Of a stretch of 29,731 nucleotides of DNA, positions 5,099 through 20,948 are shown piece by piece. Numbering within the stretch: position 1 is the stretch's first letter; each line of letters begins with the position of its first letter. The notes beneath the pieces are model-generated. The model saw nothing but the letters and a program-made list of their open reading frames with translations, did no database searches and was not told the origin of the DNA. Source of the stretch: a virus; the UHGV virus genome UHGV-2199876, one strand, 5' to 3'. Both the position numbers and the translations under genes were made by a program.

Positions 5099-6088
5099 TT
5101 AGTTATTTTTTACATCGGAAGAATTTCCAAACGCCTCCTCAAGAATAGATTCAATTTTACTCATTAGGTGCGATGGTATTTTTCTGTTATCTAATTTTAA
5201 TGTTGTGAAATTTTTCCCATATTTCGCCACAACACCGTCTCCATATTTCTTTTCCCTTTTCTCTCCATGTGAATTGTTTTTCTCAACAATAATGAAATCA
5301 TGAAGAGCCTGTATTATTCTTTGCGCATCTAAACTTTCACCTGATTTTTTCATCCTCAGCAACTGAGATGCAGCATTTTTCATGGCTGCTTCCTGTCCCT
5401 GATATGCTTTAAAAAGAGCGTCTCCTGCTCTGGCTGATAACTCACCAGGATGGTTAAATATTGCCAATATATCTTTAGGTAAACCGGCTGTATTAATACA
5501 TCGGCTGATAATATTTCTATCCACGCCTTCGGCTTCAGCTAAAGATTTTACGTTACCGTCAAATTCATGGAGCCTTCGCAGGTATCTTTTCCCCCTTTCA
5601 TAGGCGCTGATAGGTCTATAGTCGTTGCCTATCTGCGATAACCATTGCATTTGTTCATCATCTAAATCGCCAATAAGAACACGATAATCGCATCCAGTTA
5701 TAATGGCTGCTTTACGTCTTCGAGAACCATCAGCTACTTCAACAATACCTGACACTTTTCTTGCGAAAGCCGGATTTTGTTGCCCAGAAGTTAGAAAAGA
5801 TGGAATTAAATCAGCTAGAGAAGATTCATTTAATAAATCTTGATCACGCTCATTACCTAGCCATACCATTGTTGCCATTTCTACTTTATCTGCGGGGATC
5901 GTCTCTAACTTAAAGTTAACATTACGTCCGCATACTGGCAAAGTTATGCTATTACCGGTTAATGAACTCAGTTGACGTTTTAAATCACCAACCATAGGTG
6001 ATACCGGCTGATGTTCAGGTGCATGATGATTATTACTCATAATGCGATTAATATCCGGAGCATTTTTTAGAAGAGAGCGTTGTTTCAT
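5099..6088 (-). CDS. sopB: Partition protein SopB (ParB family, centromere-binding)
   Basis: 329-aa ORF immediately downstream of, and overlapping, the sopA ORF. Resembles F SopB as I remember it. Contains a ParB-like segment (RKAAIITGCDYRVLIGD). Confidence 0.85.
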   Translation of the reverse strand: MKQRSLLKNAPDINRIMSNNHHAPEHQPVSPMVGDLKRQLSSLTGNSITLPVCGRNVNFKLETIPADKVEMATMVWLGNERDQDLLNESSLADLIPSFLTSGQQNPAFARKVSGIVEVADGSRRRKAAIITGCDYRVLIGDLDDEQMQWLSQIGNDYRPISAYERGKRYLRRLHEFDGNVKSLAEAEGVDRNIISRCINTAGLPKDILAIFNHPGELSARAGDALFKAYQGQEAAMKNAASQLLRMKKSGESLDAQRIIQALHDFIIVEKNNSHGEKREKKYGDGVVAKYGKNFTTLKLDNRKIPSHLMSKIESILEEAFGNSSDVKNN

Positions 6089-7254
6089 TCTTCGTTCTCC
6101 CAGCGAGGTTTTATTAGATCATCAAAAATTTCTCGACAAACAGGGTCCCATATAGAGACGGCATTTCTCCATGCATTAAGTGTTGAACGCTGGTTTGCCG
6201 CTTGTTCAAATACTGTTCGCATTTTTATCTGACCTTTACCTACTTCATCGGTAACGCGTACAACCTGACGTAATACCATTGATCCCCATGTATTTCTTAT
6301 TTGCTCTTCCATCCATCGTGATTGATTTCCTGTAGTGAGACTATATTTAGTCAGAAGCAAGCGAACGGTCGGCTCAAATCCGCCTAGGTCAACGCTTTCT
6401 AGGAGATCGAGAAGCATTGTGAAAAACTGTAGAACAGAGGCGTAATCAAATAATTCTGCAGGGGTAGCAACAACGATAACGTCAGCTGCGCAAACAACGT
6501 TAATGGTTCCTGTACCGAGGTTTGGAGCACTATCTATAACGATAACATCGTAGTTATCCCAAACTGATTCTATAGCTGCGCGTAGCATCAGGTGAGGAGG
6601 GTGAGGCAATTTACCCTGAGCATGATATTGCATGAGATCTGTTTCTATACGGTGTAAAGCTAGGCAGCTAGGAATAATGTCCAGTCCAGGCCAGCATGTT
6701 GGTTTTATAGCATATTCAGCGTTATCGCGTTCGCCCAAGTAAAATGGCAGTAAAGTATCCTCGGCATGTATATGTAAATCAGGTACATAACCGTGATACA
6801 TGGAGGCTGTTCCCTGAGGATCGTTACCTTCAACTAAAAGAACACGATGACCTTGTAATGCTAGCCATTGTGCCTGATGTACTGCAGACGATGTTTTATA
6901 AACGCCGCCTTTGTGTGACATAACAGCAAGCACAACTGGGTTTTTATCTTGTGGCCGTTGGTTTGGGTTGCCAAAAACAGCTCGCATACTATTGATTTGA
7001 TCTATGGTATAACCGGCACGACGTTCAACTCTTCCTCTCATTTCAAAGTCAGGTGCAGGTAAACGCCCGTTCTTCTCAGCATCTCTTATTGCTTGAGGAG
7101 TTACACCAATTAAATCTGCTACTTCAGTTATCCCCCATCTACGCGTGATACGCCGAGCTTCAGGACTATCATCACCGAATTGAGCTATAGCAATTGCTTG
7201 GGTCATTTCTTGACCGCGCGTAACACAATCTTGTAATAACTTTTTCAAAGACAT
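6085..7254 (-). CDS. sopA: Partition ATPase SopA (ParA family, Walker-type)
   Basis: 389-aa ORF with the deviant Walker A KGGVYKTS and long stretches matching F SopA as I remember it (QGTASMYHGYVPDLHIHAEDTLLPFYLGE, IKPTCWPGLDIIPSCLALHRIET). Confidence 0.9.
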   Translation of the reverse strand: MSLKKLLQDCVTRGQEMTQAIAIAQFGDDSPEARRITRRWGITEVADLIGVTPQAIRDAEKNGRLPAPDFEMRGRVERRAGYTIDQINSMRAVFGNPNQRPQDKNPVVLAVMSHKGGVYKTSSAVHQAQWLALQGHRVLLVEGNDPQGTASMYHGYVPDLHIHAEDTLLPFYLGERDNAEYAIKPTCWPGLDIIPSCLALHRIETDLMQYHAQGKLPHPPHLMLRAAIESVWDNYDVIVIDSAPNLGTGTINVVCAADVIVVATPAELFDYASVLQFFTMLLDLLESVDLGGFEPTVRLLLTKYSLTTGNQSRWMEEQIRNTWGSMVLRQVVRVTDEVGKGQIKMRTVFEQAANQRSTLNAWRNAVSIWDPVCREIFDDLIKPRWENEE

Positions 7255-7360
7255 ACTGTCATCTCCAGCTTATAACTTTGCTTAATAATTATTGCTTTGC
7301 ATATTTCTAGCAAATTGACATAGAAAAAGCAAAGTAAAACAAAAAAGGCAAAGACGAAGA
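7255..7360 (-). promoter_or_regulatory. sop promoter/operator region with CTTTGC/GCAAAG repeats
   Basis: At least four CTTTGC or GCAAAG hexamers lie within about 100 bp upstream of sopA (7276, 7298, 7331, 7350). F SopA autoregulation uses CTTTGC repeats. Confidence 0.5.
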
Positions 7361-7539
7361 TTTGAGCAAAATCATCTTTTGTTTTATCCCTTAAATGCAA
7401 AAAAAAACAACGACAAGCTCATAACAAATTGATAATAAAGGATTTTTTAAAAGAAAGGAAATCGTATAAAACTAGTGAAACATGATGAAAATCATCAATG
7501 AGATACGTTTCCTCTATTTATTCTCCTAATCCTCACCAA

Positions 7540-7875
7540 CAAAAGAACACAATCAAAGATCGTAAAACAACAATAATAATTCACACAAAATAAAGAACAC
7601 AAATACAGAAAACAACAACACAATAAAAACAAGAGAACACAAGCTATAAATATTACACCAATAGAGAACACTAATCAAGAACATATCAGCACATAATTCC
7701 CCATTATACGCGCGTATAATGGGGAATTATGTGCTGATTTTCAGAACAAAGTCAAGGAACAAATTTTAATGTTCCGATATTGTGTTTTTATTTATTATCC
7801 GTTATTGTGTTATGTTAATTTGTGACTAAGTTAACGCGTTATTAGTTATCTTATTCTCAAATTGTGTTACGATAA
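7540..7875. other. tos-like region: telomere-resolution palindrome flanked by inverted AACACAA / TTGTGTT repeats
   Basis: Left of the palindrome: AGAACACAA at 7544, 7594, 7634, with 7665 and 7678 as variants. Right of it: ATTGTGTT at 7779, 7804, 7862. The two sets are in inverted orientation around 7685-7738. Confidence 0.7.
7685..7738. other. telRL-like telomere resolution site (54-bp perfect palindrome with a central CGCGCG)
   Basis: atcagcacataattccccattatacgcg | cgcgtataatggggaattatgtgctgat checked base by base: perfect dyad over 54 bp. Closely resembles the N15 telRL/telO palindrome as I remember it (TATCAGCACACAATTGCCCATTATACGCGCGTATAATGG...). Sits just upstream of telN. Confidence 0.85.
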
Positions 7876-7902
7876 TCCGAGCGGATAATCAGGAGAGGAA
7901 AG

Positions 7903-9816
7903 ATGAGCAAAGTAAAAATCGGTGAATTAATAAACTCACTTGTTAGCGATGTTGAGTCAATAGATAACTCTGACCGTCCTCAAGGGGAGAAAACAAAAAA
8001 AATAAAGGCTGTTGCATTAAAATTTAAAAATGCATTATTTAATGACAAGCGAAAGTTTAGGGGTAAAGGATTAGAAAAAAGAATTACAGCCAACACATTC
8101 AATGCCTATATGAGCAGGGCCAGAAAACGGTTTGATGATAAACTTCATCATAGCTTTGAAAAAAATATACATCGCCTATCTGAAAAGTATCCTTTATATA
8201 ATGAGGAGCTATTATCATGGCTTTCTCTACCTGCTGCCGATATTCGCCAGAGAATGTCAGCTTTACAGGCAAAATTAAAATTAATTCTCCCTCTATCAGA
8301 AGATTTATCTAATATCAGAATTGGCGATAACAAAAATCATAATAAGTTATTAAAATTATCAAATAAATATAAAGAGTGGCAATTCGCCATTTCTGATTTA
8401 ACTAGCGATAACTGGAAAGATAAGCGCGATTATTTATATAAATTACTACAGCAAGGATCTGCCTTACTTGAGGAGTTGAATCAGCTAAAAGTTAACCATG
8501 AGATTCTCTATCATCTTCAACTAAGCCCTGCCGAACGCGCATCTATCCAGCAACGATGGGCGGACGTTCTGCACAATAAGAAACGTAACGTGGTGGTCAT
8601 TGATTACCCCAAATATATGCAAGCTATTTACGATATTATAAATAGCCCTGCTACATTAAATAATCTAAACACTCGTTCAGGTATGGCTCCTTTGGCATTT
8701 GCACTTGCTGCATTGTCAGGAAGACGAATGATTGAGATTATGTATCAAGGTACATTTACTGTTTCTGGTAAGTATACCGTTGATTTTTTAGGCCAAGCAA
8801 AAAAAAGAACTTCTGATGATATAACCAGAAAAATATATACATTATGCGAAGCAAAAACATTTGTTTATTTAATAAATGTACTTCGCTCATGCCCAGCAGC
8901 ATCTGATTTTGATGATGTCGTTAAAGGTTATGGAGATAACGACACACGCTCTGAAAACGGACGGATTAATGCCATATTAGCAAAGGCTTTTAACCCGTGG
9001 GTTAAATCATTTTTCAAAGATGACCGCCGTGTTTATAAAGATAGTCGTGCTATTTATGCCCGTATTGCGTATGAAATGTTTTTCCGCGTAGATCCTCGTT
9101 GGAAAAACGTAGATGAGGATGTTTTCTTTATGGAAATTTTAGGCCATGACGATGAAAACACTCAATTACACTATAAGCAATTCAAGCTGGCCAACTTCTC
9201 AAAGACATGGAGGCCAAATACTGGAAACGAAAATACCAGGCTGGAAGCATTGCAGCAGCTTGATGACGAAATGCCAGGATTCGCCAGAGGAGATGCCGGA
9301 GTTCGTCTGCATAACACAGTTAAGCAGCTGGTAGAGCAGGACCCCTCTATAAAAATCACGAACAGCACTCTAAGAGCATTCAAATTTAGCCCTACAATGA
9401 TTAGTCGATACCTAGAATTTGCTGCTGATGCTCTGGGGCAATTTGTTGGCGAAAATGGACAATGGCAGCTGAAAATAGATTCTCCAGAAATCGTTATGCC
9501 TGACGAAGAAGAGCTGGAAGCAATACCTGAACAGACGGATGAATTATCAGAGGATGACGATCTGGATGACGACGAAATTGAGATAGAGATAGAGGAAGAG
9601 GAAGAGGAAGAGGAAGAGGAAGAGAGCGTAGAAGAACAGCAACCGCCCGCGCCTTCTTCACCTGTATCTAAGCCGGTATTTAAGCCTGTGAGAAATATTG
9701 GTGATGGATCATACGTTGTTGAATTTCATTATAATGGCCAGAATTATGCTTGGTCCGGCAGTGCAAACAGCCCTATATCAGCAATGCAGTTAGCATGGCT
9801 GACATATTTCGGATAA
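7903..9816 (+). CDS. telN: Protelomerase (telomere resolvase) TelN
   Basis: 637-aa ORF closely matching N15 TelN as I remember it (MSKVKIGELIN..., RITANTFNAYMSRARKRFDDKLHHSF, VVVIDYP, GRINAILAKAFNPWVKSFF). Acidic C-terminal tract. SD GGAGAGG upstream. Confidence 0.93.
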   Translation: MSKVKIGELINSLVSDVESIDNSDRPQGEKTKKIKAVALKFKNALFNDKRKFRGKGLEKRITANTFNAYMSRARKRFDDKLHHSFEKNIHRLSEKYPLYNEELLSWLSLPAADIRQRMSALQAKLKLILPLSEDLSNIRIGDNKNHNKLLKLSNKYKEWQFAISDLTSDNWKDKRDYLYKLLQQGSALLEELNQLKVNHEILYHLQLSPAERASIQQRWADVLHNKKRNVVVIDYPKYMQAIYDIINSPATLNNLNTRSGMAPLAFALAALSGRRMIEIMYQGTFTVSGKYTVDFLGQAKKRTSDDITRKIYTLCEAKTFVYLINVLRSCPAASDFDDVVKGYGDNDTRSENGRINAILAKAFNPWVKSFFKDDRRVYKDSRAIYARIAYEMFFRVDPRWKNVDEDVFFMEILGHDDENTQLHYKQFKLANFSKTWRPNTGNENTRLEALQQLDDEMPGFARGDAGVRLHNTVKQLVEQDPSIKITNSTLRAFKFSPTMISRYLEFAADALGQFVGENGQWQLKIDSPEIVMPDEEELEAIPEQTDELSEDDDLDDDEIEIEIEEEEEEEEEEESVEEQQPPAPSSPVSKPVFKPVRNIGDGSYVVEFHYNGQNYAWSGSANSPISAMQLAWLTYFG

Positions 9817-9829
9817 AGCATACGGTAAA

Positions 9830-9856
9830 GGCACCGAATTATCGGTGCCTTGTTGT
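9830..9856. terminator. Bidirectional terminator hairpin between telN and convergent minus-strand genes
   Basis: GGCACCGA-atta-TCGGTGCC perfect 8-bp stem followed by TTGTTGTGT. Confidence 0.6.
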
Positions 9857-9861
9857 GTGGT

Positions 9862-10026
9862 CTACCTCGCCTGCCCCTTTTCGTCCTCATCCAACTTTCT
9901 GATAGCCGTAGAATCAATACCCGCCGCCATACACACATCAGATGCAACAAACCACGGTTCGCCGTTGATCATCACTACACGAACCTGATGCTCTTCCTGA
10001 AAGGAAAAGACTGCTAACGCGCTCAT
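9862..10026 (-). CDS. Truncated Bro-N / antirepressor N-terminal-domain protein (54 aa; below the ORF-track length cutoff)
   Basis: Hand translation gives MSALAVFSFQEEHQVRVVMINGEPWFVASDVCMAAGIDSTAIRKLDEDEKGQAR, which fits the Bro-N/Ant N-terminal signature (F.F....R....GEPWFVA.DV......D....LD.DEK). Its ATG overlaps the stop of the upstream ORF (ATGA) with a GGAGG SD. Confidence 0.55.
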   Translation of the reverse strand: MSALAVFSFQEEHQVRVVMINGEPWFVASDVCMAAGIDSTAIRKLDEDEKGQAR

Positions 10027-10256
10027 TCAGCCTCCTTATCGCGCAGCAAGTGCGACGAGAGAGACGCAGAATATCCCTGTGCTTCATGCGTTAACTCACA
10101 CGCAATCTGCAGAAGTTTTCCAGCCTCTGAGAGGTAAATCGACGCCTCACAACTGGAGACTGTCCGATGGGCTGATGATACGAGCGCATAGACCTGAGCC
10201 AGACGTTCATCCAACGATTCCAGCAGGCCAACAGTGTTCATTTTTACCTGATTCAT
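10023..10256 (-). CDS. Small protein translationally coupled to the Bro-N ORF (candidate icd-like leader gene)
   Basis: 77-aa ORF with a GAGGTGG SD 4 nt upstream. Its stop overlaps the start of the Bro-N ORF, the same coupling seen for icd-ant in P1 immI. The icd-like label is by arrangement only. Confidence 0.4.
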   Translation of the reverse strand: MNQVKMNTVGLLESLDERLAQVYALVSSAHRTVSSCEASIYLSEAGKLLQIACELTHEAQGYSASLSSHLLRDKEAE

Positions 10257-10423
10257 GCAGCCACCTCGCGCACCGGAATACGGGCAGACAATACCAGGAC
10301 AAACCGGCTGGCGAACTGGCGACGAGCTTCCCGTTCAGATGACGCGATAGTGGAAAGATGATGAATGTGGGACTTTTTGTCTGTGCGAACGACTGCCGCA
10401 AATTTGAATTTGAACATGGTATG

Positions 10424-10640
10424 CACTCCGTTTTATTGGTCGTGCTACCACCAGAGTTGCGAATCTCTTTATTGGTGGTAGCCCAGGCGGGGTTCGCAAT
10501 ACCGGTAAACGAAGAAACCGGCCCGACCGAAGTCAGCCCCACCTGAGCCACCATAATTCGGATATGCGCAGGTCTATACACACAAAAAAACACGCTGGCG
10601 CGTGTTGTGCGCTTCGTTTTGCCAGGATTGCGAAGTCCCG
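10424..10640 (-). promoter_or_regulatory. Candidate RNA regulatory leader (structured, with mutually complementary heptamers) upstream of the icd-like/Bro-N ORFs
   Basis: About 530 bp with no credible ORF. Perfect 10-bp stem GCTACCACCA...TGGTGGTAGC (10444-10482) with TTGCGAA in its loop; the complementary TTCGCAA at 10495-10501; a second TTGCGAA at 10629-10635. Confidence 0.3.
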
Positions 10641-10797
10641 ACTGCGGGATTTACCGCAGCGAGGTGACTTTACCTCCAAAACGACGCACACGTCAATAAT
10701 TTGCAAAGACATTTTACCCCGTGACCAGTCACGGGGACAGGTGTTTTTATAGTTTGCTTGAACGAGTGATCAGAAGTTGATCGTTAATCAAAGGCCA

Positions 10798-11109
10798 TTA
10801 CGGATTAAGAGAGTGGAAATACCTAACTAACTTACCGGCATCATCACATTTTTCTTTATCTTCTTCCTTAACATAGCCGCGACAGAAGGCTGAATAAAAT
10901 TTCGCATTTTCAGAAGCAAAAGCAGCCGTCGAAAGGAGCAGTTCTTTGCATGATTCTTTTGATGCAGCATCGGGATTATTTTTACATGCAAGCTCCGCTG
11001 ATGAGTTAATAACAGAAATGCTATCTTCCTGGGCATAAACCGCAGCAGAAAAGGCAAAACATAAAACCAAAATAAAACTCTTCACTTTATCTCCTGTAAC
11101 AGTTATCAC
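10798..11109 (-). CDS. Small secreted cysteine-containing protein (103 aa, signal peptide)
   Basis: N-terminal hydrophobic signal (FILVLCFAFSAAVYAQ) and at least 4 Cys in the mature part. SD GGAG upstream. AT-rich relative to its neighbours. Confidence 0.5.
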   Translation of the reverse strand: MITVTGDKVKSFILVLCFAFSAAVYAQEDSISVINSSAELACKNNPDAASKESCKELLLSTAAFASENAKFYSAFCRGYVKEEDKEKCDDAGKLVRYFHSLNP

Positions 11110-11112
11110 AAC

Positions 11113-11520
11113 TCAATCAACTTTTTTAGCATCAGCCATACGCTTCAACCAGTAATCAACAATCGGCTGCTCATCCACAGAATGTTTACCAGGTATAACT
11201 CGCCAGCTATCTTGCGAAAATCTGCCGTACTTACGCGGGAATAGGCCTTTCTTTATCTCCCGCCATGTACTAGGAAAACCATCCACAAAAGTACCAATTA
11301 ACAGGAGAGGGACAAAAATCAGAGCTACAAACCATCGTGCAAGAAAGTGTTCAACAACAACATTTTCACCGTTGTAGTAATACGCATACGCATCCAATAT
11401 GCGAATTTTCCTTACCTTAAAAATAGCCTTATGCTGAGAACGACTTAACTTGATACGAATGTATCCCTTATCCAAAGGGGATTCGTATTTGTATGATTGA
11501 AAAGCCATTTTTAACCCCAC
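11113..11520 (-). CDS. Hypothetical membrane protein (135 aa, one central TM segment)
   Basis: ORF with the hydrophobic segment WFVALIFVPLLLIGTFV. Translationally coupled to its neighbours. Confidence 0.5.
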   Translation of the reverse strand: MGLKMAFQSYKYESPLDKGYIRIKLSRSQHKAIFKVRKIRILDAYAYYYNGENVVVEHFLARWFVALIFVPLLLIGTFVDGFPSTWREIKKGLFPRKYGRFSQDSWRVIPGKHSVDEQPIVDYWLKRMADAKKVD

Positions 11521-11837
11521 TCACCATCAGCAAACAAAGCGTTATACTCTGACAATGGTAGACGGTTGCCCTCGATGTAGAGATTCAGTTCATACTTCGT
11601 CTCCGGGTTTTCCTTGTCGGCTCGTTCCCAACGCTCAGCAGCCTTACGCGCCAATAATTCCACTGCTTTCAGGTAATCCTCCGTACGGAACCAGCCAAAG
11701 ATAAGGCCACGATCTGTTACAGCCCAGGCGACCTTTTTTTCTTCCTCCTGGATAGCCTTAATGCGTCGATCGCATTCATCCCGGCAGAACTGCAGCTGAC
11801 GGTAATCAAGTTTGTCCAAAAATGCAGTAGTAGACAT
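11511..11837 (-). CDS. Hypothetical protein (108 aa)
   Basis: ORF with a GGGGAG SD upstream. Sits in the repA-distal operon. No recognised motif. Confidence 0.5.
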   Translation of the reverse strand: MSTTAFLDKLDYRQLQFCRDECDRRIKAIQEEEKKVAWAVTDRGLIFGWFRTEDYLKAVELLARKAAERWERADKENPETKYELNLYIEGNRLPLSEYNALFADGEWG

Positions 11838-11841
11838 ATTT

Positions 11842-12033
11842 TTACTCCCCGTTCACCGAAAAATCACGATAGAAGCGTTTCCACATACGATAAGTCTGCG
11901 CGAGTTGTTCACCACGAAACATCGCCTTCCTGGCCTTCATGTTTTCCTTGTGAGACTTTCGATCTATGAACCAAAACCATTGCTGGAACACACAAAGCAA
12001 GAGACACAAAGATAATATCCACTGATTACCCAT
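11842..12033 (-). CDS. Small membrane protein (63 aa) translationally coupled to the repA stop
   Basis: The ATG at 12033-12031 overlaps the repA TAA (ATGGGTAA). Sequence MGNQWILSLCLLLCVFQQWFWF... has one TM segment. The ORF track's longer 102-aa version runs back into repA. Confidence 0.35.
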   Translation of the reverse strand: MGNQWILSLCLLLCVFQQWFWFIDRKSHKENMKARKAMFRGEQLAQTYRMWKRFYRDFSVNGE

Positions 12034-15000
12034 AGAAAGCGCCCTGCTCTTCGTAGCTGCATGAGCTATTCCCGGTAATGTATTCTCGTAACCGCCGCAA
12101 TTCATTGCTGGACAAGTGATCCATGAACTCTGTGAGATACAGAGATGCAAACGTCATAGCTATGCTGGCTGATGACCATGATGACATAGTGGCCAGCTCC
12201 TCACCGGAAAGCGCACTCATCGCCCAGGACTCAGGAACAGCCACCGGCAATACGGCCAAAGCCTCAGAAATTACTGAATGAGGGGCGTTTTGAACCTGCT
12301 CGTTTGTGGATCGCGTTTTATCATCCATATATATATTGAGATCCAAATCGCGATCCATTTCGATGGCTGTCTTCTCGGCTTTACGCGTTTTTAGGGTTAG
12401 GCCATCTTTCTGACGCTGAACAAGAATATCCAGCATAAATGCCGCTGATTCAGGCTCAACAAAACGCAAGGTTGGACGCTTATCGCCGTCTCTGCCGCGA
12501 CGTTTACCTGTTTTAAGGCCAAGAGAGTCGCAAATGTTTTTAAACAACGCTTCCGGCACTTTAGGCTTCCCTTTTGGCGTCATAAAACCACCAATGTGCA
12601 GAACGTTATTCAACAGGTCACGGCGTTCGGCTGTCATGAGGTTATCTCGAGCGAATTTGAGACGCTCCTGAGTCGCCTCGCCGGTCATAGTCTCAGGGTT
12701 GATACCGCAGTCGATAAAGTACTGCCGGAGAGTTGCTGATTTAAGCGCATAGAAACCGCGCGCCCCGACTTCAACAGTAGGAGTAGCTTTTACCTTGTAG
12801 TCGATTATTCCAGGGAATTTAGTTTTAAAGACATCATCAGCCTGCTCGCGAGTCATCGCGGTCACTACAAAATATTGCCACTGTCCCGCCTGACGGTATG
12901 CGTAGGTAAAATTGATGGCTGCTTCTTCCCGGTCGTAACGACGAGCTGTTACCTCATCTAAAAGCATTGTTTCATAGCGGCGAACTTTGTCTCGAGCACC
13001 ATCGAAATAGAATTTCAGCGTGCCTTCTTCAACCGGTAGTTTCAGTTCGTTCTCAATATCCCAGCGGACAAGTTTTGCTTGTTCTTCAAGCGTCAGCGCG
13101 CGTTTTTTTAGCAGTTCTTCACGCTCTGATTCTTGTGGAGTTTCTGTATTGAGATGCAGATCCAGTGTCTGTTCCCACACAATATCCCGCGCTTCTTTAC
13201 GCAGATCTTTACCGATATCATTCGCAGCATAATCGGTGGCCAGCGGCGATACCTTATAACCGTCGCTGTGCATGATGCAGATCATGTTGCTGGCGTAGTC
13301 GTTACGCGCAGACGCTTCAATTGCGGCTGCTTTAATTTTCATCCTGGTAAAGTCGGTATTGGCCACCCCCATTGATATACGGTCGCCATCGAAAACGACA
13401 TCCGTCAGTTCACCGTTCATGCCTGCGGTAGCAAGCAATGCCTGGGCGAATGCTCGTTCTATTTTTTGCGGGTCAGTTTCACGTTTTGCGCGAGCTTTAT
13501 CAAAGCCGATAATAAATTCTTTTGCTGTACGGTCGCGGCGTAGCATTTGCACTGCGTCGCTGGGTACAACTTCACCACAGAACATGCCGAAATGACGGTC
13601 AAAATGTTTTTGCTCAATCGACACACCGGATGAAATAGACGGGCTATAAATCAGGCCGTCGTATTTTTTGACCATCTTTTTCGGTTGATTGGTAAATGCT
13701 TCAACTTCTGGCTCTGGTTTGTTTTTCTGGTTTACACACAGAAATTTCTTACCAGGAAAATGCATTCTCAGGGTGGCTGTCACATCTTCTGCAAAGGTGG
13801 AGCTGTCGGTGGCCAACATGATTTTTTCGCCATCCGATACAGCTTTCACCACCTCGGTCATAATGCGATCTTTTTCTGTATAAAAAACCCGGATTGGCTC
13901 ACCTGTTTCGCGGTTGCGAACATCAACAGGTAATTCAATTACGTGGATCTGCAGCCATGCCGGTAAACCTAGTTCTTCACGGCGTTTCATAGCCAGTTCA
14001 GCCAGGTCAACCAGCAGATCGTTCGCATCAGCATCCACCATTATTGGGTGTTGTTCCGTTCTGGCCAGCGCGTCGATTAACGTATTGAATACAGCCACCG
14101 GGTTTTCCATAGCCCGACCGGAAAGAACGGCACGTAGCCCTTGCGTGGCCTCGTCAAAGCCAAAATAGTCGTGCTGGCGCATCAACGGTTGCCAGCAGTT
14201 TTTAACAATCGAGTTTATGCAGATGGTCAGTTTACTGGCGTATGGAGCCATTTCCTGATAGCCAGGGTCCTGATAGTGCAGGATATCGGCTTTTACACCT
14301 TTTCCTTCTGTCATCATTTCCCACAGGCCACCAATAAGGGAAACACGGTGAGCAACAGAGATACCACGTTCTGAGCTATGCATTAAAGGTCGTAACAATC
14401 CAGTAGATTTGCCGGAACCCATACCAGCACGAACGATGACTATCCCCTGTAGTGATTGCACATACTTCAGGACGTCATCGGTCATTACCGAAGTTTCAAA
14501 ACGCTTATAGGTGATATGTTGAGGACGTTTATTGGGATCAGTTATGCGTTCGCTGAATGAGCGCGGAGCCTGGGCAATACGGCACTTTTTATTCAGGCGA
14601 CGGGCAATGTGGTCTTTTACCGTAGCGCGATAGATATTTTCCAGCCCCATTTCACGCAGAACGATGCAGAACATGTTAAATAAGTCTGACGGACTGTTAG
14701 GAACCGGACAGGTTAGCATGCCAATATCCACCGCTCTCAGCAGCTCTTTGGCAAAAGTACGACGGTTATCCCGCTTAATTGTCTTCAGGCGGTTGAGCGT
14801 CAGAGATAGCAAATCAGTGCCGGTTTTCAGGCGGTTTGCAGTTGCAAACAGTTGACGTGCTGTTTCACGAAGTCCACGCAGTTTGTGCAGGTCGTTGAAG
14901 TCACTGCACTCCATTTGCGGATCGTCTTCAAAAGTTGGATAGACGCAGCGGACATCGTTGAATTTCGATAAGATTTCATAGCCAGTCCGCAGGCCGGTAT

Positions 15001-16021
15001 TCCCTTTTCCTTCTGTGGCTGATTTCCGGTCATTATCCAGTGCGCAGGTGATTTTTGCCGCCGGGTACATGTTTACCAGTTGTTCCACAACATGAACCAT
15101 GTTATTAGCGGATACAGCGACAACCACAGCGTCAAAGCGTTTATCTTTTTTCGTGGCAAGCCAGATGGATGCACCAGTAGCAAAACCTTCTGTAACAGCG
15201 ATGTTTTGCGCCCCTTTTAGCTCACCGATAACAAAGCAGGCACCGACGAAATCGCCGCTGGTTACGGCGCTGGTCTGGTATTTTCCACCTTGTTTGTCGA
15301 TTCGCTGCCAACCCACAATACGACCATCGTAACGACCGTCCAGGTGAGCCAGAGGGATAGCCATATACGTGGTTGGCCCCCTGCTCCATTTTGCGCTGTC
15401 GTGACTGGTCACGCGACGCACATCACACGAATTAAAAACGTCACGAATACCTTTTTTAATCGCATATGGCCATGAGCCGTCTTCTGCAGGAGCATGTTCC
15501 CACGCGCTGTGGAATGCCAGCCATCCCAGCAAACGTTCATGGTCCATTTGGTTGTTTTTCAGGTCATTAATTCGTTTTTGTTCTTCACGGCGACGACGTG
15601 CTTCGGCCTGACGTTCTATTCTTGCCCGTTCTTCTTCCGGTTGTGCGACCACGGTCGCATTATTCCGTTGTTGCTCACGGCGATATTCAGAAAACAGGAA
15701 GGAGAAACCGCTCCATGAGCCAGCATCGCTGCCTTTATGGACGAAGTTAATGAACGGGTAATCAATCCCTTTGCTGTGTTCCAGCCGGGAGTAAATTTCT
15801 ACGCGTCCTTTGAGGCTCTTTTCGAGAGCTTCTGGAGATGTTTTATTGTATGAAGAGTAACGCTCAACACCCCCGCGAGGGTTGAGTTGGATGTTGTCGG
15901 AACAGGCAGACCAGTTGATACCAGCCATCTGTGCCAGCTCGGTTAGTTCATCCCGTGCTGCTTCAATTAGCGAGAACGGATCGCTGCCAAAGCGATCCGC
16001 ATAGAAATCGTTTAATGTCAT
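12026..16021 (-). CDS. repA: Replication protein RepA (multidomain primase-helicase, N15 RepA / P4 alpha-like)
   Basis: 1331-aa ORF with Walker A (VRAGMGSGKST) in the central helicase region and a primase-like N-terminal part. Size and position match N15 repA. Confidence 0.9.
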   Translation of the reverse strand: MTLNDFYADRFGSDPFSLIEAARDELTELAQMAGINWSACSDNIQLNPRGGVERYSSYNKTSPEALEKSLKGRVEIYSRLEHSKGIDYPFINFVHKGSDAGSWSGFSFLFSEYRREQQRNNATVVAQPEEERARIERQAEARRRREEQKRINDLKNNQMDHERLLGWLAFHSAWEHAPAEDGSWPYAIKKGIRDVFNSCDVRRVTSHDSAKWSRGPTTYMAIPLAHLDGRYDGRIVGWQRIDKQGGKYQTSAVTSGDFVGACFVIGELKGAQNIAVTEGFATGASIWLATKKDKRFDAVVVAVSANNMVHVVEQLVNMYPAAKITCALDNDRKSATEGKGNTGLRTGYEILSKFNDVRCVYPTFEDDPQMECSDFNDLHKLRGLRETARQLFATANRLKTGTDLLSLTLNRLKTIKRDNRRTFAKELLRAVDIGMLTCPVPNSPSDLFNMFCIVLREMGLENIYRATVKDHIARRLNKKCRIAQAPRSFSERITDPNKRPQHITYKRFETSVMTDDVLKYVQSLQGIVIVRAGMGSGKSTGLLRPLMHSSERGISVAHRVSLIGGLWEMMTEGKGVKADILHYQDPGYQEMAPYASKLTICINSIVKNCWQPLMRQHDYFGFDEATQGLRAVLSGRAMENPVAVFNTLIDALARTEQHPIMVDADANDLLVDLAELAMKRREELGLPAWLQIHVIELPVDVRNRETGEPIRVFYTEKDRIMTEVVKAVSDGEKIMLATDSSTFAEDVTATLRMHFPGKKFLCVNQKNKPEPEVEAFTNQPKKMVKKYDGLIYSPSISSGVSIEQKHFDRHFGMFCGEVVPSDAVQMLRRDRTAKEFIIGFDKARAKRETDPQKIERAFAQALLATAGMNGELTDVVFDGDRISMGVANTDFTRMKIKAAAIEASARNDYASNMICIMHSDGYKVSPLATDYAANDIGKDLRKEARDIVWEQTLDLHLNTETPQESEREELLKKRALTLEEQAKLVRWDIENELKLPVEEGTLKFYFDGARDKVRRYETMLLDEVTARRYDREEAAINFTYAYRQAGQWQYFVVTAMTREQADDVFKTKFPGIIDYKVKATPTVEVGARGFYALKSATLRQYFIDCGINPETMTGEATQERLKFARDNLMTAERRDLLNNVLHIGGFMTPKGKPKVPEALFKNICDSLGLKTGKRRGRDGDKRPTLRFVEPESAAFMLDILVQRQKDGLTLKTRKAEKTAIEMDRDLDLNIYMDDKTRSTNEQVQNAPHSVISEALAVLPVAVPESWAMSALSGEELATMSSWSSASIAMTFASLYLTEFMDHLSSNELRRLREYITGNSSCSYEEQGAFYG
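15644..15659. other. sopC-like centromere site (TGCGACC-AC-GGTCGCA) inside repA
   Basis: 16-bp match to the inverted repeat shared by the four other sites. Same 7-2-7 architecture as F sopC (TGGGACC-AC-GGTCCCA). Confidence 0.55.
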
Positions 16022-16144
16022 TTTTTAGCCATTCCATGCGAATTATGTTTTTTCGGGTTGAAAAAATCCGCAGGAGCAGCCACAATAAACGCATCTTGAA
16101 TTGACGGAATCCGTCGCGTTACTGTGGCTGCTTCCTGAAAAGGA

Positions 16145-16172
16145 CCCGAGTTTGCCGACTCGGGTTTTTTTT
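16145..16172 (+). terminator. Hairpin followed by T8 between cB and repA
   Basis: CCCGAGT-ttgccg-ACTCGGG followed by TTTTTTTT. The plus-strand orientation is the strongest, but both flanking genes are on the minus strand. Confidence 0.4.
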
Positions 16173-16266
16173 CGTCTTTTTTCTGCTGCTGTAACCTGAG
16201 TCAACCCACAGAACATATGCTCTGCATTAAACCAGATTTACAGCAAACAATAAACCCCGTATTAAG

Positions 16267-16863
16267 TCATCTACCCTCAACCATGAATGATTTGATCGTT
16301 CCGACTATTTGGTGAACAAATTCAAGATCGCTTTTCCTGAAGATGGCGCGTTGTGAATTTGTTCCGTCCAGATAGTAATTTTCATCATCAAAACGGGCCA
16401 GGCGCTGGATGGTGATATTTCCTGCAGTATCACGAACCAGAACATCCTCGCCGGGAACCAGTTCCAGCGCAGAATCGACCAGGAGAAAATCGCCTGGCTG
16501 ATAGTTTCCCTGCGCCAGATTGCTGATAGTTAACGCATAAACAGTATTGCGCTGGCTGATGAATGGCAGGAATCGCTCAGTATTTGGAACCTGTCCTGGC
16601 TTCCACTCTTCATCAGGTCCACTTTCAGTTGTGCCAATAACAGGAATGCGATCAGGGTCATATTCTGTCCCATACAGCACCCAATGCACTGGCTTGCGTA
16701 AGCATTTAGCCAGGGCAATACCTATCTCCAGTGACGGCATTACGTCGCCACGTTCTAAGTTTTGGACGCCTGCAATAGAGATATCGACAGCCTCAGCAAC
16801 TTCTCGCAACGTCAGCTTCATCTCTAAACGGCGTGCTTTCAGTCGTTCGCCTCGTGTTTTCAT
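16267..16863 (-). CDS. cB: Prophage repressor CB (cI-like: N-terminal HTH plus C-terminal S24/LexA-like domain)
   Basis: 198-aa ORF with an XRE-type HTH (LTLREVAEAVDISIAGVQNLERG) and a C-terminal region with the character of lambda cI / LexA S24 domains. Divergent from the cro-like gene. Confidence 0.85.
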   Translation of the reverse strand: MKTRGERLKARRLEMKLTLREVAEAVDISIAGVQNLERGDVMPSLEIGIALAKCLRKPVHWVLYGTEYDPDRIPVIGTTESGPDEEWKPGQVPNTERFLPFISQRNTVYALTISNLAQGNYQPGDFLLVDSALELVPGEDVLVRDTAGNITIQRLARFDDENYYLDGTNSQRAIFRKSDLEFVHQIVGTIKSFMVEGR

Positions 16864-16886
16864 AGCTTAATCATAAATGATCTTCT

Positions 16887-16927
16887 TATAGCTGGCTATA
16901 AAATTTATTTATTATAGCTGGCTTTAA
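16887..16927. promoter_or_regulatory. Immunity operators: two copies of TTATAGC-N2-GCTATAA between cB and cro
   Basis: TTATAGCTGGCTATAA at 16887-16902 and the imperfect TTATAGCTGGCTTTAA at 16912-16927. A TATAAT hexamer lies at 16943-16948. Confidence 0.5.
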
Positions 16928-17176
16928 ATGCGATTTATTGCTTATAATAACCGCATGAAACCAGAAGAACTTATTCGCCACTTTGGCAGTGTAGAAAAAG
17001 CAGCGGCTGGGGTAGGTGTAACACCCGGTGCTGTTTACCAATGGTTAACCGCTGGAGAGATTCCTTCATTGCGGCAAAGTGATATTGAAGTTCGTACTGC
17101 TTACAAGCTGAAGAGTGACTTTACAACTCGGCGGGTAAAGCAGTCGATTAAGGAGAGCCGTAAGCGTGGAGCTTGA
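16928..17176 (+). CDS. cro: Cro-like small DNA-binding regulator
   Basis: 82-aa ORF (73 aa if it starts at ATG 16955) divergent from cB. Contains a GVTPGAVYQWL HTH-like segment. Confidence 0.6.
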   Translation: MRFIAYNNRMKPEELIRHFGSVEKAAAGVGVTPGAVYQWLTAGEIPSLRQSDIEVRTAYKLKSDFTTRRVKQSIKESRKRGA

Positions 17177-17876
17177 GTATATACGCAGCTGCGTCTCCAC
17201 GGCATTGGCTGATATTCATTATCGCCAGCGTGGCATCCTAGAGGTCCAGCTTGAGCAGATGCGTCTAGGCAGATCAGGACGCTTTAACAATAAACCAGTC
17301 CGGTCAATCAGTGTAGGTGATGATAACTCATACGAAGTGTCTGTTCCTGCTGAGCCGGTTAGATTCCACCAGGGCAAAACATTTAAACAATCATCAATGT
17401 TGCTCACTGATATTGATTTTCAGAGCGCCAGCTGGCGCAGGGCTATTGGTCAGTTGAATAACGAGGAATCAGCCTGGCTTTATTATTGCTACGGATGCAA
17501 GCCTAACTACAACAATGATGTGATTGTTTGTCAGTGGTTATGGCTTGATTTTCTGGTTGCGCATTCGGGTGGCGGGTTTAAAAAAATGAAGGCCTCCACG
17601 AAAAAAGCCATGAGAAAATTGATTTATTACGCGGCACAGCAGGTTAAGTCAGAACTTACGTGTGCTGAGGCAGTTGATGATAGAGAACAGGACAGGCAGC
17701 TGAGTTTTCTACTGAATATATCTATTGATAGCTGGAGACAAGATTATAAAGAACGCTGGCTTTTAATTAAGTCGCGATGTCTGAGCTTAAATCGAACTGC
17801 ATTATTAAATGCGGCGGAGAAGCGCAGTGAAATCATCAAACGCCATCGGGCAGGAAGTGCCATTCTGCCTTTGTAA
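17166..17876 (+). CDS. Hypothetical protein at the position of the late antiterminator (Q-like?)
   Basis: 236-aa ORF immediately after cro with a GTG start. Cys cluster YYCYGCKPNYNNDVIVCQW. Assignment is by position only. Confidence 0.3.
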   Translation: MELEYIRSCVSTALADIHYRQRGILEVQLEQMRLGRSGRFNNKPVRSISVGDDNSYEVSVPAEPVRFHQGKTFKQSSMLLTDIDFQSASWRRAIGQLNNEESAWLYYCYGCKPNYNNDVIVCQWLWLDFLVAHSGGGFKKMKASTKKAMRKLIYYAAQQVKSELTCAEAVDDREQDRQLSFLLNISIDSWRQDYKERWLLIKSRCLSLNRTALLNAAEKRSEIIKRHRAGSAILPL

Positions 17877-17883
17877 ACAAGTT

Positions 17884-18129
17884 ATGTTCAGGAAACCGTC
17901 GAAGCCGGAATTAAGGTATTCGGGGGTAAGAAATGAATATGTTATCTGGTGTCCAACTTGTGGTTACAGGACACGACCAGATAGTAATAAGCAGTCTGTA
18001 ATTGCCGATTGGTATTTATCAAATCAGCCAGGTAATAAGCATATAGAAAATCTTTGGATTAAGCGTTACTTGGAAATCAGAGAGGGTGCGACCGTGGTCG
18101 CACAAGAAAATGAAAATAACGCCATTTAA
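17884..18129 (+). CDS. Small zinc-finger protein (CPTCG motif; Lar-like?)
   Basis: About 81 aa from ATG 17884 containing WCPTCGYRTRPD. The ORF-track start at 17809 overlaps the upstream gene. Confidence 0.4.
   Translation: MFRKPSKPELRYSGVRNEYVIWCPTCGYRTRPDSNKQSVIADWYLSNQPGNKHIENLWIKRYLEIREGATVVAQENENNAI
18087..18102. other. sopC-like centromere site (TGCGACC-GT-GGTCGCA)
   Basis: Same inverted repeat, at the 3' end of the zinc-finger ORF. Confidence 0.6.
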
Positions 18130-18139
18130 GCAGGGGCCG

Positions 18140-18313
18140 ATGACGCATGATGAAGCAGAGCGTCTTTCAGATACTTATCGGCGGCGTGGTAAGAAAGTTC
18201 TGGTTGTTCGTTCTGATTTTTTAGGTGATGGATATTGCGTTTATGTTCATTTACCTGAATCAGAAAGAACACCAAAACCATCCAGAACATATCAACAGAA
18301 AATTTGGGTATAG
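18140..18313 (+). CDS. Hypothetical small protein (57 aa from ATG 18140)
   Basis: ORF in the early-right operon. The ORF-track start at 18086 lies inside the sopC-like site. Confidence 0.3.
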   Translation: MTHDEAERLSDTYRRRGKKVLVVRSDFLGDGYCVYVHLPESERTPKPSRTYQQKIWV

Positions 18314-18336
18314 ATAAACGTTGAGGAGAATTATTC

Positions 18337-18936
18337 GTGACTAATCAGATTATTTACGACAGGAAACGGTCTGATGTAATGATTGACCTTGAAACAATGG
18401 GTACTAACACATGTGCTCCAATTGTTTCTATCGGGGCAGTGTTTTTTTCTCCAGAAGGTGAGGAATTAGGTCCTACTTTTTATGTGCCAGTGAATCTCAG
18501 AAGCTCGATGTTGAATGGTGGTGTCGCCGATGGTGATACCATTTTATGGTGGTTGAAACAGAGCAAGGAAGCCAGAGCCGCAATTTGTACTAATGATGCC
18601 CTTAATATTAAGGATGCACTTTTTGAATTATCACACTTTATTACTTGCCATGCATGTAATTTAAAAAAATTGAAAGTATGGGGAAATGGAGCAACATTCG
18701 ACAATGTAATTTTACGCGGTGCTTATGAGCGCGTTGGCTTAGCCTGTCCGTGGGAATATTTTAATGATCAGGATGTTCGAACAATCGTTAATCTTGGTCA
18801 GTTTATTGGTTTCAATCCTAAAAAAGATATGCCATTTGATGGTGAACGACACAATGCCCTGGCTGATGCTATTCATCAGGCTAAGTATGTATCCGCAATT
18901 TTCTCCCGTCTTGTAAAAGGGCAAGGAGAATCGTAA
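18337..18936 (+). CDS. DEDDh-family 3'-5' exonuclease
   Basis: Motif I MIDLETMG, motif II VWGNGATFDN, motif III H-NALADA. GTG start with a GAGGAG SD. Confidence 0.7.
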   Translation: MTNQIIYDRKRSDVMIDLETMGTNTCAPIVSIGAVFFSPEGEELGPTFYVPVNLRSSMLNGGVADGDTILWWLKQSKEARAAICTNDALNIKDALFELSHFITCHACNLKKLKVWGNGATFDNVILRGAYERVGLACPWEYFNDQDVRTIVNLGQFIGFNPKKDMPFDGERHNALADAIHQAKYVSAIFSRLVKGQGES

Positions 18937-19355
18937 TGGCAAAGGCTTTTACACCAGAACAGAGGGAAGAACTGAATAAACAAATTGTGGAACTCGTGCG
19001 CCTGAATGGACGAGGAACGGTTAGGCAACTTGCGGATGAAACTGGTATTAGCCGGTGTGCTGTTAGTCGTTTATCAAGAGAGCTTGCTGCCAGTGGTGAT
19101 TTGTATATCTCTGGCTCCGGGATATTTCTGTCTGCACAAGCACGCAAGGACTGGCAAAACGCCCGTAAAAAACTATCAAGAGTAAAGCCGAAGACATCGG
19201 TAGTGGTTGATCCAGACCTTATCTGGTCATTACCTGACGGAGAAATACGTCGTTACGACAGGCGCTTGAACATGATTTGTCACGATTGCCGGAAAAGTGA
19301 AGTTATGCAGCGTGTGCTGGCTTTTTATCAGGGAAATTTACAGGAGGTGGCGTAG
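18936..19355 (+). CDS. Putative HTH DNA-binding protein (139 aa)
   Basis: GTVRQLADETGISRCAVSRLSRELAASGD has HTH character. AAGGAGA SD. Confidence 0.45.
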   Translation: MAKAFTPEQREELNKQIVELVRLNGRGTVRQLADETGISRCAVSRLSRELAASGDLYISGSGIFLSAQARKDWQNARKKLSRVKPKTSVVVDPDLIWSLPDGEIRRYDRRLNMICHDCRKSEVMQRVLAFYQGNLQEVA

Positions 19356-19645
19356 TGAATATCGACACCACGATAACGATCGATACGGCCCTAAATATCG
19401 GTCTGGCACTTCTCGGTTGGTTTTACATCATGTTCAGTGCGGGGAAGTGGGCGGCCTCTGTTTTTCTAAAGCAGTGGGGAAAGCACCGCAAACAGGAAAG
19501 ACGCCAGAAAGTGTTAGAGGCGTTCTATGACGCATTTGAACTTAGCCGCATTGAGCCAGGCACAACAGCCAAGATAGCGACAAAAGGCGACCTGATGATA
19601 GTGATGTTCCGACAGGAGAGAGCAGATAAAGGGGAATCAGCATGA
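19355..19645 (+). CDS. Small membrane protein (96 aa)
   Basis: GTG start with a CAGGAGGTGG SD. TM segment IGLALLGWFYIMFSAG. Confidence 0.45.
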   Translation: MNIDTTITIDTALNIGLALLGWFYIMFSAGKWAASVFLKQWGKHRKQERRQKVLEAFYDAFELSRIEPGTTAKIATKGDLMIVMFRQERADKGESA

Positions 19646-20301
19646 AATTTTCCAAATTTTCTGAGTTGGTGAATCGTATTTTGTCCAACAACCACAGCCA
19701 TCGTCGCGATATGGATGTAACAATCGTTATTCATTCGCCTGGCAGCATTGGTTCAACACCCTCAGTTGAGGTTCAGTCAATTCACGCTGGTTTTGATTGG
19801 GATTCCGGGAAAGTGCTGATTTTCCCAGCACAGCCACTGACCACGCTAACACCAGAACAGATTACTGATATTACTGATAGTGTGCGCAAAGGTCAGTCCT
19901 GGCACGCATATCAGGAATACAAGAAGCATAAAGAGCAGTTGGAAAAATTGTCGATTGAACTGGATGCTGCAAAACAGCGCGTAGCAGAACTGGAAGCCAA
20001 ACCTGTAAGCCAAACTTACAAGTTAACTTTTGAGCAATGGCTGGAACAGCAGCATGACAAAATTGATGTTGATTGTGGATGTGTAAGTACTGAAATGTTT
20101 ATGCACTGGATAAGGGTCGCGTATGAGGCTGGCAACTCTCCGGTAACTCCGGATGGTCATGTTCAGTTTTCTGTTTCACTTCCTGCAGCGTTTGGTGGAG
20201 ATAAATATTTTATTGATGGTGTATTTCAACCTTTGAGATATGAGCGTGATTGTGAAAGGGCGGTTGTGGCCGCTGGCGGTGTAGTTAGTTGGGTTAAGTA
20301 A
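19642..20301 (+). CDS. Hypothetical protein (219 aa)
   Basis: Start overlaps the upstream stop. Central coiled-coil-like stretch. No recognised domain. Confidence 0.5.
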   Translation: MKFSKFSELVNRILSNNHSHRRDMDVTIVIHSPGSIGSTPSVEVQSIHAGFDWDSGKVLIFPAQPLTTLTPEQITDITDSVRKGQSWHAYQEYKKHKEQLEKLSIELDAAKQRVAELEAKPVSQTYKLTFEQWLEQQHDKIDVDCGCVSTEMFMHWIRVAYEAGNSPVTPDGHVQFSVSLPAAFGGDKYFIDGVFQPLRYERDCERAVVAAGGVVSWVK

Positions 20302-20316
20302 TTTTCAGGAGGATTT

Positions 20317-20643
20317 ATGGCGCTGACACCGGCAGAACGGCAAAGGAGACGCAGGGAACGGTTGAAGAAGGAAGGCACATCAAGACGGGACTGGATTCTA
20401 GAACCTGACGAGTTACGTATGTTGGGGGAAATTTGTGTATTGCGTAGACCAGGGCGAGTTCCATATTCGGAGAACGAAGTCATTGGTTTGCTGATCAGGA
20501 AAAACTATAAGGAGCTGCAGAAGCAGCTATCTACTACTTGCCCGCGATGTGGTCAAAAAATGCCTGTTTCAGAATGCATTTTTGATGGCGAAGGGTCATG
20601 CCACCTTACAACCACGAGGCTGAAACTTGCGCTCAAAGTGTGA
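20317..20643 (+). CDS. Hypothetical basic protein with a C-terminal CxxC (108 aa)
   Basis: Arg-rich N-terminus (TPAERQRRRRERLKKEG) and a CPRCG motif. AGGAGG SD. Confidence 0.45.
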   Translation: MALTPAERQRRRRERLKKEGTSRRDWILEPDELRMLGEICVLRRPGRVPYSENEVIGLLIRKNYKELQKQLSTTCPRCGQKMPVSECIFDGEGSCHLTTTRLKLALKV

Positions 20644-20661
20644 CTGGTCACGGAGGGATAA

Positions 20662-20904
20662 ATGGATAAAAAGGCATTGCTTTTTGAAATGATACGAAAA
20701 CGGAGCGAAAAGAGCTTTTCTGATGGTGGTGATGGGTTTGTTTTCGCTTCGATGCTTGCTTTTGATGTTGGGTTAAATAGCAGAATTGTTAAAAGGATGC
20801 TTGATTCTGCTGTCCGTACTGGACTTCTTGAGAAAGTTGATCGTGGCATAGGGAGAGAGCATAAGTATCGGGTCACACAGCAGTTTACGCAGTTAATTCA
20901 TTGA
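20662..20904 (+). CDS. Hypothetical small protein (80 aa), possible DNA-binding
   Basis: ORF with a GGAGGG SD, preceded by a GTGAC-N2-GTCAC palindrome. Confidence 0.4.
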   Translation: MDKKALLFEMIRKRSEKSFSDGGDGFVFASMLAFDVGLNSRIVKRMLDSAVRTGLLEKVDRGIGREHKYRVTQQFTQLIH

Positions 20905-20932
20905 AAATTGACCGTAAAGTTTGAGTTTTATC

Positions 20933-20948
20933 CTGTAATTTTATACAG
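20933..20948. promoter_or_regulatory. LexA (SOS) box CTGT-N8-ACAG
   Basis: cCTGTaattttatACAGta fits the CTGT-(AT)4-ACAG consensus. Lies about 40 bp upstream of the 20987 ORF and overlaps likely promoter hexamers. Confidence 0.55.

Follow-up and report, generated by a model that had tools for sequence, protein, structure and literature searches.

Does the long palindrome that stands just ahead of a large open reading frame in virus genome UHGV-2199876 form, together with that frame, a telomere-resolution module like that of phage N15, and does its departure from the N15 site mean that the target specificity has changed? We addressed this question for positions 7540–9816 of a stretch of 29,731 nucleotides of that genome (hereafter, the whole stretch is called the window). 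We are highly confident that the region represents the telomere-resolution module of a temperate, N15-like Escherichia coli phage-plasmid that is near-identical to phage PhiR46_1, with a target specificity that is most likely the ordinary one. An earlier sequence-only reading had proposed a telRL-like target with flank repeats beside the protelomerase gene of an N15-like linear plasmid prophage. Our results support this proposal well, through the domain architecture and catalytic residues of the enzyme, synteny, an identical telO core, and database records of relatives that end or mirror at the centre of the palindrome (the dyad).

Protelomerase gene and its product

The open reading frame of 637 amino acids that had been noted after the palindrome was borne out at the following position:

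7903–9816, + strand: protelomerase (telomere resolvase) gene of the TelN/TelK type, 637 amino acids, identified by Pfam domains, structure 2v6e and catalytic residues; ribosome-binding site GGAGAGG at ~7891–7897

Its product is predicted to be a complete TelN/TelK-type protelomerase. Four Pfam domains (TelK_N, TelK_muzzle, ResT-TelK_cat, and TelK_stirrup) were all found in the correct order, each 60–140 bits above its cut-off, and the TelK crystal structure (2v6e) aligned end to end with residues 1–536 (E = 5e-295). Overall, the enzyme was ~79% identical to N15 TelN, 76% to TelK, and 42% to PY54 Tel, with similar values obtained by tblastn. When identity to TelN was calculated by domain, it reached 85% in the N-terminal domain, 69% in the muzzle, 88% in the catalytic domain, and 91% in the stirrup; the acidic linker and the C-terminal 48 residues were divergent.

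Alignment to the N15, phiKO2, and PY54 enzymes, which the sequence-only reading had named as a check on its identification, showed that the catalytic residues are conserved rather than missing. Specifically, R275, K300, R382, H415, and Y424 do not vary among the window protein, TelN, TelK, and PY54 Tel, and Y378 is common to the first three (phenylalanine in PY54 Tel). The catalytic motifs GRR, AKKR, Y..R, LGH, and HY also align to ResT and correspond to the active-site residues of TelA (R255, K286, Y363, R366, H394, and Y405; PMC3558466), with the topoisomerase-IB/tyrosine-recombinase-type set intact. Y424 is the counterpart of the TelN residue that is mutated in the inactive TelN(Y425F) (PMC12624138).

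The acidic linker contains a GAG/GAA simple repeat at 9560–9625 that encodes a poly-Glu/EIEIEI tract (residues ~553–575). This tract explains all of the length variation among close relatives of the enzyme (629–641 amino acids), which elsewhere show 0–13 substitutions.

The palindrome and its core

A perfect dyad of 54 base pairs (bp) with a central CGCGCG had been reported from the letters alone, and we recovered both. The features of the site are as follows:

7540–7880: tos-like region comprising telRL and oriented flank repeats, in the divergent sopA–telN intergenic space; aligns with the tel regions of N15, phiKO2, and Pseudocitrobacter
7685–7738, no strand: telRL, the predicted protelomerase target, with its dyad between 7711 and 7712; homologous to the annotated sites of N15 (cut at the dyad) and phiKO2 (telRL)
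7701–7722, no strand: telO core CCATTATACGCGCGTATAATGG, the same 22 bp in N15 and phiKO2 and in the annotated telL and telR at both ends of PhiR46_1
7709–7714, no strand: CGCGCG, read directly from the sequence; predicted to lie between the scissile phosphates (6-bp staggered cuts)

The two arms (7685–7711 and 7712–7738) are 100% complementary and have a spacer of 0. This is the sole long perfect inverted repeat in the window of 29.7 kilobases (kb), where the next best has 25-nucleotide arms with 84% complementarity, and by our own arithmetic ~2e-12 palindromes with 27-nucleotide arms would be expected by chance in a sequence of that length. As single-stranded DNA, the palindrome folds at -26.2 kcal/mol (z = -10.7 against shuffles).

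On one side of the site is sopA (6085–7254, - strand) and on the other is tel, which starts at 7903 on the + strand. A large palindrome is therefore found directly 5' of a protelomerase gene with the sop operon on its other side, as in a telRL/tos region, and it occupies the same intergenic place as the feature that is annotated in N15 as an 'inverted repeat containing cut site for prophage formation' and in phiKO2 as telRL. Aligning the palindrome with known telRL sites, a check that had also been suggested, showed that its 22-bp core with the central CGCGCG and its CAGCACA outer motif equal those of N15 and phiKO2. The outer L3/R3 inverted repeats are present as ATCAGCACATAAT and its complement and differ from those of N15 by a single substitution (C to T); the telL of phiKO2 has the same T. 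In the native TelK target, CGCGCG is located between the scissile positions (PMC3558466), and by homology the top strand of the window would be cut after 7708 and the bottom strand at the position symmetric to it.

A promoter-like match was also seen at 7726–7755 on the - strand (TTGACT, 18 nucleotides, CATAAT; 10/12 positions), pointing toward sopA; its -10 element lies in the right palindrome arm and its -35 element outside. Telomere resolution would split this match, so that only an uncut circle would allow it to act. The sigma-70 scan of 7200–10000 was overall at chance level (10 matches vs. 9.6 expected), and none of our promoter claims rests on it.

Identity and occurrence of the element

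The left arm of Escherichia phage PhiR46_1 (PV340565, from host ECOR13) matched positions 7701–24000 at 99.9% identity. This phage is deposited as a linear record whose two termini both fall within the 22-bp core and which is annotated with a 'telL site' and a 'telR site'. The last 472 bp of the record showed three differences from window positions 7251–7722 (~99.4% identity), including a TTT for a TTC spacer. PhiR46_1 differs from the window in one spacer base per arm and in the length of the poly-Glu tract. At the DNA level, the protelomerase gene was 100% identical to the gene for RefSeq protein WP_046076837.1 ('protelomerase family protein').

Further matches at 80–100% were obtained with phage YDC107_1 (CP025712) and 33 PLSDB plasmids, 31 of which matched at 90% or more. 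These plasmids came from E. coli, E. albertii, Shigella, and Enterobacter, and all were typed as non-mobilizable. PhiR46_1, YDC107_1, and the ~46-kb 'plasmids' of E. coli, E. albertii, and Shigella (pEND_Eco 123-2, NZ_CP126957; p19KM1803_4, NZ_CP151021) represent the same element as the window, although some relatives have an outer motif in telR other than that of the window. The element was present in 18 of 5,426 complete E. coli genomes, where 36 of its 38 places were on plasmid records. The other two were on chromosome records, for which misassignment, integration, or misassembly of a linear plasmid are possible.

The gene content of the window is also that of an N15-like phage-plasmid. It includes Lom, a tail fibre and its chaperone, SopB, SopA, RepA (1331 amino acids), a CI-like repressor, Cro, Q, a methylase, a lysozyme, a lambda-like cos leader, Nu1, and gpA. 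Pfam supported SopB_HTH, a ParA-type ATPase, RepA (Toprim and origin-binding domains), an HTH + S24 repressor, Cro, Q, lysozyme, Nu1, and gpA. The gene order sopB-sopA / telRL / telN ... repA is that of N15, and similarity to N15 and phiKO2 spans repA to Q. The module is the ordinary hairpin-end unit of an N15-like E. coli phage-plasmid, of which the element, the protein, and the tel sites are already in public records. As a discovery it is of little weight, being a textbook N15-type module in an element that has been both deposited and annotated.

Database records that end or mirror at the dyad

Records of relatives break at the palindrome in several ways. The first base of five plasmid records falls 5–51 bp right of the dyad (record position 1 at query positions 418–464), and in at least seven oversized records (61–92 kb) the match is confined to the sequence from the left palindrome edge onward. 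In pEND_Eco 123-2, two identical protelomerase genes stand head to head about the palindrome, which is a telLL mirror as expected from long reads rounding a hairpin, or from a sampled replicative dimer. Records that end or mirror at the dyad are what would be expected if these relatives had hairpin ends. The bases just outside the 54 bp tell telLL and telRR mirrors apart from a true telRL. In the window these bases are AACAT on the left (the telR flank) and TTTCA on the right (the telL flank), which identifies the junction as telRL.

Flanking AACACAA repeats

The motif AACACAA has nine copies in the window. Seven of the nine lie within 7546–7868, with no wrongly oriented copy on either side of the palindrome:

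7546–7552, + strand: left repeat AACACAA (GAACACAAT), the outermost; motif at a like distance (-166/-167) in N15 and Pseudocitrobacter
7596–7602, + strand: left repeat AACACAA, from the motif count
7617–7623, + strand: left repeat AACACAA, from the motif count; copy missed by the sequence-only reading
7636–7642, + strand: left repeat AACACAA, mirror partner of 7780–7786; the outer edges of both are 75 bp from the dyad
7780–7786, - strand: right repeat (TTGTGTT on the + strand), +75 from the dyad; +75/+76 kept in N15 and phiKO2
7805–7811, - strand: right repeat, +100 from the dyad; +100 kept in N15, phiKO2, and Pseudocitrobacter
7862–7868, - strand: right repeat, +157 from the dyad, within the block of strongest conservation (ATTGTGTTAyGAT), 5' of the tel start codon

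Three direct copies on the left and three inverted copies on the right had been claimed initially; the right-hand number stands, and the left-hand number has to be raised to four. These flanks are compositionally extreme (A-rich/T-rich; 60% A in the left flank). Even so, against local dinucleotide shuffles the left-hand AACACAA count had P = 0.007, and the right-hand count was reached by 0 of 20,000 shuffles. An alignment of the tel regions of the window, N15, phiKO2, one Pseudocitrobacter contig, and one viral contig showed that conservation outside the palindrome concentrates on the repeat motifs, chiefly on the right copies at +75/76, +100, and +157.

The repeat consensus, (G/A)AACACAA(T), resembles the outer half-site GCACATAAT. 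In N15, the L1/L2 and R1/R2 repeats are degenerate copies of the L3/R3 outer motif (PMC12624138). With four left and three right oriented copies at positions conserved with N15 and phiKO2, the AACACAA repeats are the counterparts of the N15 L1/L2 and R1/R2 repeats. Most likely, they provide extra protelomerase-binding sites that would aid enzyme recruitment and end protection, and they may regulate the flanking telN and sop promoters. The location of the +157 copy, in the most conserved block and just 5' of the tel start, suggests autoregulation. With regard to the part of the enzyme that could contact such repeats, the stirrup domain of TelN (CTD1) has been raised as a conceivable binder of the N15 repeats, and CTD1 is dispensable for end protection (PMC12624138).

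A small inverted repeat, GGAACAAATTTTAATGTTCC, lies at 7756–7775 between the palindrome and the first right-hand repeat, and contains two opposed GAACA motifs. GAACA at this distance is kept in N15 and Pseudocitrobacter but not in phiKO2.

Half-site variation and target specificity

To place the window site among natural ones, the 22-bp core was scanned in a viral collection (36 loci) and a genome collection (one locus, Pseudocitrobacter), and eight plasmid junctions were added. This gave at least 50 natural half-sites, which were tabulated with the identity of the adjacent enzyme. The sequence-only reading had given an N15 arm that differs from the arm seen here, and comparison with NC_001901 showed it to be correct: the left arm reads ACAATTGCCC in N15 and ATAATTCCCC in the window. 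Counted from the dyad, the window arm carries two substitutions, G to C at position 13 and C to T at position 18. The N15 site is also longer and imperfect (56 bp; TTGCCC vs. TAGTCC) when compared with the perfect 54 bp of the window, despite the identical telO core and CAGCACA motif and the matching repeat distances.

Position 13 falls in a spacer of 3–4 nucleotides between the core and the outer motif, and all four bases were seen there in natural sites. The spacers of the N15 arms are TTG vs. TAG-T and those of the phiKO2 arms are CAG and TAG; across natural sites they include TTC, TTT, TTA, TAC, TAA, TTG, TAG, and others. Position 18 is T in every arm of the clade of the window, which we define as 13 telRL junctions whose enzymes are at least 97% identical to the window enzyme, and is C in most N15/Klebsiella arms. 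The single phiKO2 site contains both, T18 in telL and C18 in telR, and TelK therefore handles both. The likeness of phiKO2 (TelK structure 2V6E) to the window extends to the telO core and to the telL sequence ACATAAT, whereas its enzyme is ~76% identical, its arms are asymmetric, and its host is Klebsiella. PY54 is more distant. It shares with the window the enzyme family, a central TACGCGCGTA, and a site 5' of tel (PMC3540006), but its enzyme is 42% identical and its pal is a different, 42-bp palindrome.

Variation was also found within the clade, whose 13 junctions have four spacer alleles and three telR outer motifs (CAGCACA, CGAAACA, and CGGAACA). Two loci, L051 and L045, encode enzymes with zero substitutions relative to that of the window, differing in poly-Glu length alone. 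L051 has the spacer TTT in both arms, where the window has TTC, and L045 has CGGAACA as its telR outer motif. CGAAACA was found in telR of L019, L034, L040, L048, L049, and L050, and GCGAAACA in that of L033. Many close relatives (enzymes 98–99.4% identical, L045 substitution-free) thus have a telR AACGAAACATAAT or AACGGAACATAAT at the place where the window (7685–7697) has ATCAGCACATAAT. The same relatives retain CAGCACA in telL, and one enzyme therefore seems to serve two outer motifs.

The spacers themselves (7698–7700 and 7723–7725 in the window) carry the same allele in both arms in 10 of the 13 clade junctions (TTC/TTC or TTT/TTT, and a rare TTA/TTA in E. albertii L050). Each of the two hairpin ends replicates on its own, so equal alleles are unexpected; they could stem from concerted evolution, from recombination, or from an artefact of polishing in the repeat that the arms share. 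Outside the clade, locus L039 (IMGVR_UViG_3300036778_000064, 14665–14733) combines a protelomerase of 58% identity and the same 22-bp core with very different outer arms (ATCGTCACCACATTTCCC). As a candidate for real divergence in how the outer motif is recognised, this locus is stronger than the window.

Alternative explanations

The palindrome could be taken for a regulatory cruciform or for an intrinsic terminator that works in both directions, with no role in telomere resolution, given that a terminator scan lists it with a T-rich tail and that its hairpin is very stable. We rejected this candidate despite the scan flag because the flanking genes are divergent: with sopA on the - strand and tel on the + strand, there is no transcript to terminate. 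The core is furthermore that of experimentally defined protelomerase targets, and the records of relatives end or mirror exactly at the palindrome, leaving this explanation a negligible probability. The origin of the junction is a different matter. In the window, telRL and cos (with Nu1/gpA) are both intact, a circular permutation that is found in neither the virion nor the linear prophage, and assemblers have been inconsistent with the relatives, many of which appear as 'circular' plasmids with the same junction and others as mirror duplications or as linear records from near the dyad. An assembler could thus have created the 54-bp junction by joining the telR and telL hairpin ends through their common 27-bp arm, in which case it would not have been part of a sampled molecule. 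We consider this doubtful, if quite conceivable, since the outer flanks differ (AACAT vs. TTTCA) and the same telR and telL flanks are seen in at least 12 independent records, which makes the junction genuine telRL genome sequence, whatever molecule was sampled. Circular telRL-bearing molecules of N15 reportedly occur after infection and in lytic replication, according to an earlier paper cited in PMC10612081, and this also counts against an assembly join. The hairpin-plasmid biology would be unchanged by such a join: whether the junction is real (a circular intermediate) or made by an assembler, the functional reading is the same.

A further suggestion of the sequence-only reading was that the enzyme and palindrome are a variant pair whose target specificity is altered relative to N15 TelN/telRL, based on the difference between the two arms. 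Besides the two differing positions, this could draw on the T18 that is invariant in the clade where C predominates in N15/Klebsiella, on an enzyme that is only ~79% identical to TelN, and on the finding that TelN and PY54 Tel act only on their cognate ends in vivo and are not interchangeable (PMC12624138), such that specificity can diverge in this family. Our data do not support the suggestion, and we regard it as very unlikely. Neither the 22-bp core nor the CAGCACA outer motif has changed, phiKO2 carries T18 and C18 within one site, and the spacer at position 13 is asymmetric even in N15 and shows G, A, C, or T in nature. Moreover, the substitution-free enzymes of L051 and L045 stand beside variant sites, the stirrup and the catalytic domain are 91% and 88% identical to those of TelN, and the PY54 site is much more divergent (59.5% identical to ntelRL; PMC12624138) than that of the window. 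Positions 13 and 18 most likely represent tolerated variation, with a target specificity that would be the ordinary TelN/TelK one. A milder alternative, in which the half-site preference of the clade enzyme is slightly shifted or broadened, would fit T18, the alternative telR motifs, and the matched spacers, and seems to us quite unlikely. If true, outer-motif recognition would be looser than assumed from N15, and the two telomeres would evolve in concert. The points that weigh against our overall interpretation are the joint presence of telRL and cos described above, the invariant T18 (ACATAAT), which could mark a mild shift in preference, and phage P840 (PY54-like), in which the flanking inverted repeat is dispensable for processing (PMC10612081) and which bears on the role proposed here for the flank repeats.

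Proposed mechanism and practical use

Taking the region as an N15-type telomere-resolution module, its action can be modelled on the biochemistry of N15, phiKO2, and TelA (PMC3558466, PMC12624138, PMC10612081). After infection, the genome would circularise at the lambda-like cos, and two protelomerase monomers would bind head to head on the 54-bp telRL. Tyr424 of each monomer would cut one strand, giving 3'-phosphotyrosyl intermediates 6 bp apart that flank CGCGCG (7709–7714), and the self-complementary CGCGCG overhangs would then fold back and be resealed as hairpins. Each time the plasmid has replicated, the same enzyme would resolve the telLL and telRR palindromes. TelN has been shown to shield the ends from SbcCD; the bound enzyme probably protects the ends of the present element in the same way, and the flank repeats probably bind additional protelomerase molecules.

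In practice, the module flags its source replicon as a hairpin-ended linear phage-plasmid, which assemblers are prone to circularise or mirror-duplicate. The natural half-site variants, with spacers TTC, TTT, TTA, or TAC or with other outer motifs beside substitution-free enzymes, reveal at which positions changes in telRL are tolerated, and may be mildly useful for engineering TelN/TelK substrates (e.g., doggybone or linear-vector DNA).

Neighbouring partition and cos features

Four GCAAAG hexamers were observed 5' of sopA within 7276–7353, at 7276 and 7295 on the - strand and at 7329 and 7348 on the + strand. GCAAAG is the SopA/ParA operator motif in the partition promoters of F, N15, and phiKO2 (PMC8465637), and the cluster is the sop promoter-operator, separate from the tos repeats. 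One sopC-like centromere motif, GGGACCNNGGTCCC, had no match in the window; this form of the motif may not be the right one, or the centromeres may be sited beyond the ends of the window. The lambda cosN 12-mer GGGCGGCGACCT is likewise not in the window as such, and a variant cos leader is found there instead. This lambda-like leader spans ~26720–26915 (CGGGTTTTCGCTATTTATGAAAATTTTCCGGTTTAAGGCGTTTCC...), with a stem-loop at 26833–26889 just 5' of Nu1 (26914).

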